NCBI GenBank assembly: GCA_000934665.2
Contig: KZ538224.1
Span: 1-64,000 of the forward strand
Length of the DNA stretch: 64,000 nt
Direction of reading: 5' to 3'
Source of the DNA: Catajapyx aquilonaris
Lineage: Eukaryota
Numbering within the stretch: position 1 is the stretch's first letter; every line of letters begins with the position of its first letter. The position numbers and the translations under genes are program-made. The notes beneath the pieces are model-generated. The model made no database searches. It was not told the origin of the DNA and saw only the letters and a list, made by a program, of their open reading frames with translations. Shown piece after piece: positions 26,284-28,675 of this stretch.

Positions 26284-28232
26284 TCACTTCTTCTTTACAA
26301 TGAAGCTTGTGACTGACGGCGGTTCCTGGTCAATAGTGTTCAGGATCTTGTCCAGCCTTCCAGCAATGTTCTGCAGTGTCTCGCGTTTCTGGTCACCCCA
26401 GAGGTTGTGGTTTGGATACCAAAAGTATGGCATGTGCCCTTCCTTCAGGCGATCACGGAGAATCCCCATCGCCTGAAAAAAGGGGGTCATAAATGTCATG
26501 TTGGGAAATAGCAATCAAGATTTTTGCAAAAATCAAGCTCATTTGTAGGCTTACATAAATGAAGAGCGGACCAATGTTGGTTTCGCTTTTCCAGAAGCTG
26601 TCATCTAGCTGTTCCCTCAGCCACATGACCATGGTTTTGATGTGGTAGCTGCATATTACGGACCAGTTCTGCTTATCGCGCAGGCACTGCCGACGTTCAA
26701 ATAATTTCATTTACTAAAGCTGCACCACCTTTGCCTTCATAAGAGAAACTATACTGAACCTTTAGTAACTTGGCTGTCTGCTTCAGGGTGGCGCAATTCT
26801 CCAGCACTTTCCTCTCCGCCACCTGGAAGCTGATCCTCCAGTACTGTGACTCTGGATCTTTATTCATAGGCTTGGGAACTATAAAGAAATCCCATTCTTT
26901 GGCGTCAAATGAAGATACCATCCCTTCCTTGCGGATGAACTCGGGACATTGATCACTTAAAAATTCTAAGACCAGTACAAGGTCTACGTCTATCTCAAAA
27001 CCACCAGGAGCCTTCAAGTGGAAAGTAAATGCTGGACCTTGCTTCGCATATGTAACCTGAAAAAATATTTGTGCAATTAGCCTCGTTCCTCATGTTGCAA
27101 AATGTGGGTAGCATACCAGGACTGTTCCAATGCCATCTACTTGAATCAGAACATTCTGTGGGTTGTTCTCGCCCAGTTTATTCATGACCTGCGCGATGTA
27201 GCTCTCCATCTTGGAGCGAAGTCGACCTGGAATCACATACTCTCCAGTTGGATCCAAAATGCCCATGTCACGCATTTCCCTACAAAAGTGAAGAGCGTTA
27301 GTTGCGAGTATCACTCAAACTCTTATTCCAAAGGCTTACATGTACTGCACATATTGCGGGTTTCCAGGTTCTGCGAACTTCTTCGGAACTCGCAAAGCCA
27401 CCCATCCAGGCATGTCTTGGTCTGGCACTAACTGGAGAGAAACAAACGCACGTAAATTCAGCGTCTACTCGTGAAGAAATGAAAACGAACCTCCAAAAGC
27501 TTGTGGTTGATAGGAAGCCTCATGACGACATCCAAGTCGAACTCGGTTGGTGCCACAACTCTCAACTTGTCATACATGCTTCCAGCAGCATAAATTCGCT
27601 TGATCATTTTTCCAAATGTCTCATTGCAAGCCTTGATTTCATTAAGCATGCTTCCTTGAATTACCTGTTGATAAAGTAAATACTTTAGAAAAGATTGGGT
27701 GATTCTACAAAATAATACATAACAGTGTTCGAGAGGGATATTTTCTTCGATTTCTTTAATCGACGTGCCAAAAATTACAACTGAAATTCTCCCTAATCCT
27801 AATAATGGCTGCAGCCCAATGGGGTAAAACAAATAAATAAAATACGTAAAATTACAACTAAAAGATTTTTAATACAAAAATTGAAGCTCTGCTGGCATCT
27901 TTGAATATGGTACTTTTGTTCAAATTTTTATCGAGAAATTGAAATTGTTCATCTGCGATTTGTCACCAAGGCGAGATATTTTACAGGCTGTGGGAAGTTA
28001 CTGATTTGAAGAAACCGATAAGGCCGACTGATAACATGTAAACAACTGTTTCAATGAGACTCCCCAGTATTTTCAGCGGATTATCAGCCATTCTCATATG
28101 ACAGGCCTACAAAGAGCGCACCGTGGTCCAGAGCTTCTTGGCCTTCTTCTCGTCCTGTTCGCTGAAGGAGATGTACTGGGACGTGACCCTGGACAGCTCC
28201 GGGGACAAGCTCTTGTACTTTGCGTCCATCAT
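26284..28232 (-). CDS. cGLR: cGAS-like receptor (cGLR; Mab-21 nucleotidyltransferase family), 385 aa, 7 exons
   Basis: Exons 28232-28122, 27664-27491, 27431-27340, 27279-27117, 27056-26760, 26686-26555, 26472-26284. All introns are GT-AG; total 1158 nt in frame. Motifs: [37 protein letters not shown]...[17 protein letters not shown]. Confidence 0.9.
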
Positions 28233-28675
28233 TCCCTCCGCTTGTGCTTCTTCTTGTGCTTCTTCCTGGTCCGTTCCTCCTCGTCCTTCGGCCTCTTCCT
28301 CTTGCGTTCCTCGTCGCTGCAGCTTTCCTTCCTCTTCTTCGGCTTCTCCTCGTCGCTGTCGTCGTCCTTCTTCCCCTTCCTCCTCTTCTTGTTCTTCTTC
28401 TTCTTGCTGTGGTGCTTCCTCTCCTTCTGCTTGTCCCCCAGCTTCTTCCTCAGCTCCTCCTCGGCCAGCTGGGTCAACGGGGTGACATAATCCTCGTCGC
28501 TATCACTGCTTGTGGAGCTGATGTCCAAGACTATGGCTTTGTTGGGATCAACTCGGATAAAGTTCCTGCACTGGTATGTCAGATGCCCTGCGTACCCACA
28601 CTTCTTGCAGGCAGGCCGGATGTTGGACGTGTCCTTCCCCTGTTGGGTCAGTCTGGCTATCACGCTCGGGTCCAT
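28229..28675 (-). CDS. SREK1IP1: SREK1-interacting protein 1 (p18SRP) homolog, 148 aa, intronless CDS
   Basis: [37 protein letters not shown] zinc knuckle followed by a K/R/E-rich tail, characteristic of the family. Confidence 0.9.

Follow-up and report, generated by a model that had tools for sequence, protein, structure and literature searches.

Pairs of open reading frames (ORFs) that share one mRNA, or that overlap at a stop codon, have been described in algae, viruses, chloroplasts and animals. We analysed a stretch of 64,000 nucleotides (nt) of Catajapyx aquilonaris DNA (GenBank assembly GCA_000934665.2, contig KZ538224.1, positions 1 to 64,000 of the forward strand; hereafter, "the window"), in which a gene for a cyclic GMP-AMP synthase-like receptor (cGLR) appears to start on top of the stop codon of SREK1IP1, on the minus strand. 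Dicistronic mRNAs and stop-start overlaps are already known. In the literature collection that we searched, we found no report of the SREK1IP1-cGLR pairing or of the recurrent SREK1IP1 layout described below, none linking SREK1IP1 to bicistronic, dicistronic, polycistronic or operon expression or to JMJD5/KDM8, and none linking cGLRs to such expression; the sole paper there with both SREK1IP1 and "dicistronic" uses the term for chloroplast rRNA.

Green algae have bicistronic nuclear genes that are read by leaky scanning (PMC11892635, PMC7896298). Their layout is like that proposed for the window: two unrelated ORFs in different frames of one capped mRNA, a weak Kozak context for ORF1 and a stronger one for ORF2, few upstream AUGs, and a short gap between the ORFs (14 nt in one algal locus). 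The window differs in being an animal gene with a true stop-start overlap, a second ORF split by six introns, and an apparent short isoform with only ORF1; moreover, its scarcity of AUGs is within chance, and the case for a single mRNA molecule is assembled from contigs. Stop-start termination-reinitiation has been described for the UAAUG of influenza B M1/BM2 (PMC3035654) and for norovirus VP2 (PMC2793014), and stop-start overlaps also occur in hypovirus CHV1 (UAAUG; PMC2699510) and in chloroplast atpB-atpE (AUGA; PMC3241655). The window resembles these viral and chloroplast cases in its AUGA/UGAUG geometry after a long first ORF. It differs from the viral termination-reinitiation cases in that there is no UGGGA core, the junction is less structured than shuffled sequence, and the mRNA is cellular and spliced. 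The silkworm retrotransposon SART1 has a UAAUG as well, and stoned and Adh/Adhr are dicistronic genes of Drosophila. A tricistronic paralytic-peptide mRNA of silkworm is read by context-dependent scanning (PMC2978622). The window would share with such insect polycistronic mRNAs an arthropod nuclear mRNA with more than one translated ORF and a choice by AUG context; it differs in its partners, a conserved splicing-associated protein and an innate-immune nucleotidyltransferase, and in that their codons overlap. Spliced-leader operons of nematodes and tunicates (PMC7986045) likewise consist of co-transcribed same-strand genes with minimal spacing, whereas the window has no leader, acceptor or intercistronic space.

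Results

A predicted cGLR start codon overlaps the SREK1IP1 stop codon

The first ORF and its surroundings comprise the following features.

28676..28779, minus strand: SREK1IP1 5' leader, 104 nt; the RNA contig reaches 28779
28229..28675, minus strand: SREK1IP1 coding sequence (CDS), intronless, 148 codons plus TGA (28231-28229)
28474..28488, minus strand: sole internal AUG of the SREK1IP1 CDS, out of frame, A at -3, opening a 4-codon mini-ORF (MSPR, then stop)
28227..28232, minus strand: ATGATG, two candidate cGLR start codons that overlap the SREK1IP1 TGA as ATGA (ATG 28232-28230) and as TGATG (ATG 28229-27)

Judged by its sequence, the 148-codon ORF is SREK1IP1. It has the features of the SREK1IP1 (P18SRP) family: an N-terminal CCHC zinc knuckle (Pfam zf-CCHC_3, 31.7 bits, cut-off 27), a VLD(V/I)SSTSS block, and a Lys/Arg/Ser-rich tail. 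The knuckle (CKKCGYxGHxTxQCRNF) and the VLD(V/I)SSTSS block are invariant in an alignment of 15 SREK1IP1 sequences, and a protein collection holds 192 relatives of the ORF, the best of which, insect proteins named SREK1IP1, share 76-79% identity with it over residues 1-80. The CDS is poor in T (41 T in 447 nt; 9%), begins in the context agatagATGG, with T at -3, and ends CGG AGG GAA TGA. We rejected the idea that SREK1IP1 is a retrocopy in the 5' untranslated region (UTR) of the cGLR gene: ant- and termite-like genomic loci (L001-L007, see below) are equally intronless, and there is no A-tract between the SREK1IP1 stop and the cGLR ATG. Since SREK1IP1 is uninterrupted in genomic DNA at those loci, its intronless state is the normal one and no sign of retrocopying.

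We rebuilt the downstream gene model from the window sequence and the joints of RNA contigs, as follows.

28122..28232, minus strand: cGLR exon A, 37 codons, coding for the N-terminal segment conserved in arthropod cGLRs; shares one RNA contig with the SREK1IP1 CDS
27665..28121, minus strand: cGLR intron 1, 457 nt, GT..AG; spliced or read through; ATTAAA at 27873-27868 and 27760-27755
27491..27664, minus strand: cGLR exon B; G-S motif (AAGSMYD) and acidic dyad EFDLD
27340..27431, minus strand: cGLR exon C; RNA joints, AG/GT borders, frame kept
27117..27279, minus strand: cGLR exon D; RNA joints, AG/GT borders
26760..27056, minus strand: cGLR exon E; Mab-21 core with DVDLV
26555..26686, minus strand: cGLR exon F; RNA joints, AG/GT borders
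26284..26472, minus strand: cGLR exon G, coding part; stop TGA 26286-26284
25267..26283, minus strand: cGLR 3' UTR, about 1.0 kilobase (kb); RNA contig end at 25267; AGTAAA at 25276-25271, just before the contig end

All borders of the seven exons are AG/GT, and the spliced CDS of 1158 nt (385 amino acids, aa) has no internal stop. By sequence comparison, the gene belongs to the Mab-21/cGLR family. Exon E scores 35.8 bits against Pfam Mab-21 (cut-off 24.1; exon B alone, at 18.4, is under the cut-off) and matches PDB 7lt2_A, a "Mab-21 domain-containing protein", with an E-value (E) of 2.5e-9. An exhaustive HMMER search with exon E returned 55 proteins at E<=0.001, with no close orthologue among them; eight were looked up, of which seven are named entries from beetles or Ixodes ticks, with three bearing the name cyclic GMP-AMP synthase-like (receptor). 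A word-index search with exon E for longer proteins gave 43 candidates, none of them significant. The window's AAGSMYD...PTEFDLD aligns with GGSYYDG...PEEFDLD of beetle cGLRs (the G-S motif and [E/D]-h-[E/D] dyad of the N-terminal lobe), and the DVDLV of exon E aligns with that of 7lt2_A, in a block that holds the candidate third acidic residue of the central sheet. Thus, the window cGLR shares with the beetle and 7lt2 proteins a Mab-21 domain, the G-S motif, the acidic dyad plus DVDLV, a length of about 385-400 aa, and the N-terminal segment. It differs from known arthropod cGLRs in that its identity to relatives is only 35-47%, over exon E, and in its position, none of the homologues examined being known to lie behind SREK1IP1.

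A preliminary description of this stretch, made from the letters alone, had claimed that the cGLR ORF opens on the SREK1IP1 stop, and we verified both the ATGA/TGATG overlap (gaATGATGgac, minus strand) and the 37-codon exon that opens from either ATG, runs to a GT donor at 28121-28120 and joins in phase 0 to exon B (27664...; GSMYD...EFDLD). As far as sequence can tell, the ATG at the SREK1IP1 stop is the true cGLR start, since exon A and the N-termini of beetle cGLRs align in register. Alone, exon A matches residues 6-35 of the Tenebrio cGLR (E 0.001) and residues 8-39 of the Euwallacea cGLR (E 0.003), each in register with the homologue's start, and a MAFFT alignment with the N-termini of 15 cGLR homologues gives the pattern M..(K/R)KY...L..I...(F/Y)IS(L/F)..(E/D). 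The GC content of exon A at codon positions 1/2/3 is 0.35/0.38/0.95, in the cGLR frame only. There is no ATG upstream of 28232 in the cGLR frame, and the next one downstream is in exon B; its use would drop the conserved N-terminal segment. Upstream of the cGLR ATG, its frame stays free of stops for 90 codons. This openness is compositional and carries no signal, because the CDS there has only 9% T and stop codons need T.

Exon A has a codon style resembling that of SREK1IP1 and not that of the remainder of the cGLR gene: GC at third codon positions is 0.84 in SREK1IP1 and 0.95 in exon A, 0.52-0.70 in cGLR exons B-G, and 0.43-0.61 in neighbouring genes. The GC content of intron 1 is 0.35.

RNA contigs join the cGLR exons to exon A and reveal a second RNA form

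Our RNA evidence consists of assembled contigs of one public run (share of words 0.73), whose library type is not on record; we treated the run as RNA because its contigs skip all introns with GT..AG ends. Such contigs carry no 5' ends, strand information or local depth. Three records cover the pair. Record 1 (2092 nt, depth 16.1) extends from the 3' UTR at 25267 through all cGLR exons and, with the 457-nt intron spliced out, as far as the final 30 nt of exon A (joint 27662->28120, CT..AC on the plus strand). Record 2 (391 nt, depth 9) follows the genomic sequence unbroken from 28149 to 27759, and so continues past the donor into intron 1. The third contig, record 3 (660 nt, depth 33.4), is colinear over 28120-28779 and contains exon A, the full SREK1IP1 CDS and the 104-nt leader, unbranched and with no gaps or foreign letters. 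The three contigs overlap in one 30-nt stretch, as in a de Bruijn graph at a fork, and their lengths fully explain, by arithmetic, the binned depths. There are no loose ends at exon A or at the gene 5' ends, and hence no spliced leader or alternative 5' exon in these contigs, from which rare forms can drop out.

Use of the 28121 donor, which the preliminary description had predicted, is thus seen in the contigs. That description had also named two patterns that would speak against it, an upstream exon skipping the SREK1IP1 start, and SREK1IP1 RNAs always ending within intron 1. Neither appears: the contig covering 28120-28779 is unbranched and colinear, and a spliced form (depth 16.1) is found together with the run-on form (depth 9).

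The run-on form adds one feature to the locus.

27759..28149, minus strand: run-on RNA form (record 2), which stops at the second ATTAAA; candidate 3' UTR for a short mRNA of SREK1IP1 alone

Of the six introns, intron 1 alone has run-on cover, the bin depths for introns 2-6 fitting exons alone, which points to an alternative 3' end and not to pre-mRNA in general. In a scan for poly(A) hexamers, we found none in 28779-28122 and found ATTAAA at 27873 and 27760, the latter copy being the exact end of record 2. The second RNA form is probably a short SREK1IP1-only mRNA, which would arise by intronic polyadenylation.

Start-codon contexts at the junction

The preliminary description had correctly reported a lone internal AUG in the SREK1IP1 CDS (28488, opening a 4-codon ORF) and a T at -3 of the SREK1IP1 start. 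The latter sets this start apart from all others in a comparison of 14 SREK1IP1 starts, as the only one without a purine at -3. The second cGLR ATG (28229) has A at -3 and G at +4, such that a weak first start is followed by a stronger second one, the arrangement of contexts compatible with leaky scanning. No AUG of any frame occurs between 28488 and 28232, and the mini-ORF has an AUG-free stretch of 240 nt behind it. Bypass of the SREK1IP1 AUG, translation of the mini-ORF at 28488 and reinitiation is therefore a workable path to the cGLR start. The folding of the whole leader is unremarkable (z -0.49).

Two further observations concern the leader. Two cap-proximal AUGs (28775 and 28769) open an upstream ORF of 75/73 codons across the SREK1IP1 start (28548-28775, minus strand), and a TCAGT initiator-like motif lies about 20 nt 5' of the SREK1IP1 ATG.

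SREK1IP1 abuts a second ORF in other lineages

A scan of metagenome contigs with the SREK1IP1 alignment yielded 80 loci. We screened these for ATG-initiated ORFs of >=100 codons starting -10 to +80 nt from the SREK1IP1 stop, which flagged six of the 80. Four were kept; L017 was dropped as a repeat-like 110-aa ORF after a mere exon, and L026 because its "second ORF" is the continuation of SREK1IP1 itself. The loci with a second ORF, including one found by tblastn, are listed here.

L014:132-1615: junction tcaTGAtta, the same ATGA overlap as in the window; KDM8-like second ORF
L023:352-2147: junction TGAtcaccATGATG, 5 nt between stop and ATG; KDM8-like second ORF
L010:73-1826: 11 nt from stop to ATG; KDM8-like second ORF
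L022:53-3218: 13 nt from stop to ATG; beta-mannosidase-like second ORF; no ATG seen for its SREK1IP1 ORF
L078:68-2563: 16 nt from stop to ATG; beta-mannosidase-like second ORF; genomic, with introns of about 50 nt; found by tblastn
L015:103-1917: variant of L014 with a shortened first ORF; KDM8-like second ORF

The distance from the SREK1IP1 stop to the second long ORF on the same strand is thus -4 to +16 nt (L014, L023, L010, L022, L078). Animal-type loci in which the SREK1IP1 ORF is complete and in one piece, with >=300 nt downstream, number 15, and four of them have the layout; these 15 loci represent roughly ten lineages, L002-L007 being near-identical. The KDM8/JMJD5-like ORFs (L010, L014, L015, L023) are 400-430 aa long and all contain Cupin_8; JmjC_2 is found in all except the cut-off L014, and ARM_KDM8_N reaches its cut-off only in L014 and L015. 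They come from three lineages, which must be well separated, because identity among the KDM8 parts is only 45-54%. In an atlas look-up, which serves as a lead only, the KDM8 partners were nearest an arthropod-dominated KDM8 cluster.

The cluster that contains the L014-type SREK1IP1 protein has 20 members, and for seven of the nine full-length members listed (169-170 aa) the longest contig is 1920-2172 nt, the size of the two ORFs with their ends (L015 measures 2087 nt); three full-length members of the mannosidase type are on contigs of 3184, 3210 and 3229 nt. Both of these comparisons are judged from lengths alone. Searches for longer proteins with a SREK1IP1 N-terminus gave four matches, none of them with Mab-21, Cupin_8 or GH2; this says little in either direction, as ORFs in different frames would escape fusion by a gene caller. 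A tblastn search of the window with the KDM8 and MANBA ORFs found nothing (best E 0.45).

The beta-mannosidase (GH2) ORFs of L022 and L078 have a signal-peptide-like start. SREK1IP1 of L015, which is represented by one contig in the collection, is 115 aa (L015:103-468), compared with 169-170 aa in other members (L014:132-641), and the overlap with KDM8 is lost; the probable cause of this shortening is an indel in the lysine-rich tract or a slip of the assembly there.

The statement, made for this stretch, that overlaps of this kind are rare among animal nuclear genes needs qualification where SREK1IP1 is concerned, given at least four other lineages in which a second long ORF adjoins this gene. 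This recurrence raises the prior for a real dicistron in the window. The first ORFs of the KDM8 and mannosidase loci do not have weak start contexts. The feature common to the lineages is the closeness of stop and start, which fits reinitiation better than leaky scanning. Given a dicistronic mRNA, start contexts in the window favour leaky scanning with reinitiation after the mini-ORF, and the pattern across lineages favours restart after termination.

Neighbouring genes

An EXD3/mut-7-like gene (3'-5' exonuclease and Mut7-C domains; 28953-33101, plus strand) lies head-to-head with SREK1IP1. Contig joints on the plus strand (29080->29212, with a shorter side of 128 letters, and 29456->29510; both GT..AG) place its exon 1 at about 28953-29080. 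Between the two genes is one further feature, presumed to function as a bidirectional promoter.

28780..28952, no strand: gap of 173 nt between the divergent 5' ends; no RNA cover

Elsewhere in the window, four tandem, intronless paralogues of about 500 aa start MPRR(R/K)QP (1375-2883, 13411-14970, 15824-17341 and 21718-23223, plus strand). For one of them there is a weak match to a leucine-rich repeat (LRR_RPS2, 30.9 bits), and the group may be an expanded leucine-rich-repeat family near an immune gene. Exons of a tyrosine-kinase gene extend over about 12 kb (39392-51138, minus strand), with PK_Tyr_Ser-Thr matches on three ORFs.

Discussion

On balance, we favour the interpretation that SREK1IP1 and cGLR form one transcription unit, the long form of which is dicistronic. 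We propose that the promoter shared head-to-head with the EXD3/mut-7-like gene drives this unit, and that the primary transcript has two fates at intron 1. In one, transcription would run on for about 360-400 nt into intron 1 and end near an ATTAAA, producing the short SREK1IP1-only mRNA. In the other, the 28121 donor and six more exons would be used, producing a dicistronic mRNA of about 2.7 kb with SREK1IP1 first and cGLR second. On this long form, cGLR would be translated from the AUG at 28232 or 28229, either by ribosomes that restart directly after terminating SREK1IP1, or by ribosomes that miss the weak SREK1IP1 AUG (U at -3) while scanning, read the mini-ORF at 28488 instead and, after a further 240 nt, initiate again. 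The outcome would be a low, constitutive level of cGLR, tied to a housekeeping promoter and set by the choice between splicing and run-on and by the efficiency of initiation. We infer from the contigs and the sequence that both ORFs lie whole on single molecules, that intron 1 contains a poly(A) site, and that one of these routes delivers ribosomes to the cGLR start; the layout may keep a harmful sensor low.

Several observations weigh against this proposal. The contigs are contiguous and unbranched but break at the fork between splicing and run-on, such that they cannot phase molecules, and a cGLR start site inside the SREK1IP1 CDS would yield an identical contig graph. The AUGs at 28775 and 28769 belong to the mRNA only if the leader begins at 28779. 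The paucity of AUGs, which had been offered as support for translation of a second cistron, is not significant: one or fewer internal AUGs in the SREK1IP1 CDS is not below chance, with P 0.19 by synonymous permutation and 0.44 by codon-order shuffle (5000 shuffles per null model), so low a count being expected of such a T-poor CDS. Counts across loci are mixed, with one internal ATG in the window and in L023, five in L010 and L014, and 2-10 in loci without a second ORF. We therefore rejected AUG depletion as evidence of leaky scanning. Moreover, the one internal AUG, at 28488, has a favourable A at -3. As for restart after termination, a first ORF of 148 codons is long for efficient reinitiation. 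The UGGGA core is the motif of viral termination upstream ribosome-binding sites (TURBS), complementary to 18S rRNA, and there is no TGGGA on the minus strand of 28232-28675 (440 nt before the stop). Of 200 shuffles of the 219 nt around the junction, 198 folded at least as well as the native sequence (z +2.05), indicating that no structured reinitiation element is present there, although an unstructured junction suits scanning. Thus, the earlier suggestion that cGLR is read as a second cistron, by reinitiation or leaky scanning, stands as regards the anatomy, which is right, and lacks both a significant AUG paucity and a viral-type signal or structure. Lastly, tblastn with 16 cGLR proteins found no match in the 80 SREK1IP1 loci, and in L001 (ant-like) and L002-L007 (termite-like), where SREK1IP1 runs uninterrupted for about 150 codons in genomic DNA, no ORF abuts its stop; because of these results, the SREK1IP1-cGLR pair is not shown to be conserved.

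A rather unlikely alternative, albeit one with a real chance of being correct, is that the two genes overlap and are transcribed separately, with a cGLR start site within the SREK1IP1 coding exon giving a monocistronic cGLR mRNA, and with SREK1IP1 mRNA using exon A as 3' UTR and ending in intron 1. The run-on form, ending at ATTAAA, would serve well as that 3' UTR; internal starts are compatible with the contigs; the ant- and termite-like SREK1IP1 genes are monocistronic; and a monocistronic mRNA is the default for animal genes. Given that exon A appears to be the true N-terminus, however, a separate cGLR promoter, transcription start site and entire 5' UTR would need to sit inside conserved coding sequence. 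The tight layout also recurs with other partners. An internal start predicts a lower mean depth for record 3, so the excess of its depth (33.4) over the summed exits (25.1; 16.1 + 9) weakly disfavours such a start, contig depth being a poor measure and the stretch being partly low-complexity.

We consider it improbable that the dicistronic RNA is a by-product of read-through splicing, from which cGLR is scarcely translated, with no regulatory purpose and perhaps with degradation by nonsense-mediated decay. A stop codon ahead of exon junctions and a long 3' stretch is a typical trigger of this decay, the SREK1IP1 stop precedes six such junctions and >2 kb of sequence, and we found no reinitiation signal. 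Nonetheless, the seven cGLR exons together form an unbroken ORF (385 aa) in which the G-S motif, the EFD dyad and DVDLV are retained, and exon A has a strong codon-position signal, all of which argues that cGLR protein is made and is under selection; the RNA data show no other route for its expression. Some crustacean groups trans-splice, and an operon resolved by spliced-leader trans-splicing would give the cGLR mRNA a capped leader of its own. This is very improbable here: the cistrons overlap, leaving no room for an acceptor, no loose ends are seen at exon A or the gene 5' ends, and record 3 crosses the junction colinearly. SREK1IP1 could be fused to cGLR by a ribosomal frameshift in its lysine-rich tail, as the open cGLR frame over 90 codons upstream of the ATG would permit, but that openness is compositional and the homologues begin at the position of exon A. 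The SREK1IP1 CDS contains no X XXY YYZ slippery heptamer in any register, and we rejected a frameshift fusion, which we regard as having next to no chance of being correct.

Beyond the window, a dicistronic SREK1IP1-cGLR unit may be one instance of a wider pattern. We suggest tentatively, and would expect to be wrong somewhat more often than right, that SREK1IP1 is a recurrent "carrier" first cistron in invertebrates, whose short, purine-rich and poorly structured CDS permits restart at an AUG located about -4 to +16 nt from its stop, and that lineages have independently placed KDM8/JMJD5 (three lineages), beta-mannosidase (two) or, in the window, cGLR in that position. The recurrence of SREK1IP1 as a first cistron is the part of this work most worth following.

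cGLRs make second messengers that switch on STING-type immunity. Their basal level matters, since the sensor is needed before infection and is risky if over-made. If the cGLR gene has an internal promoter, the case reduces to an unusual gene overlap. If, on the other hand, cGLR is expressed solely as the second cistron of a housekeeping mRNA, this would be a new mode of control for an animal immune receptor, and one of few cellular stop-start overlaps in animals. Should SREK1IP1 indeed act as a carrier, the level of cGLR would be set without a promoter of its own, by the choice between splicing and intronic polyadenylation and by the efficiency of reinitiation. Both of these controls could respond to infection or stress, and the splice choice may be influenced by SREK1IP1 itself, a splicing-associated protein. 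If the pattern of KDM8, beta-mannosidase and cGLR behind SREK1IP1 holds, it would constitute a compact natural element for reinitiation after a long ORF in animals, perhaps of use in co-expression constructs.

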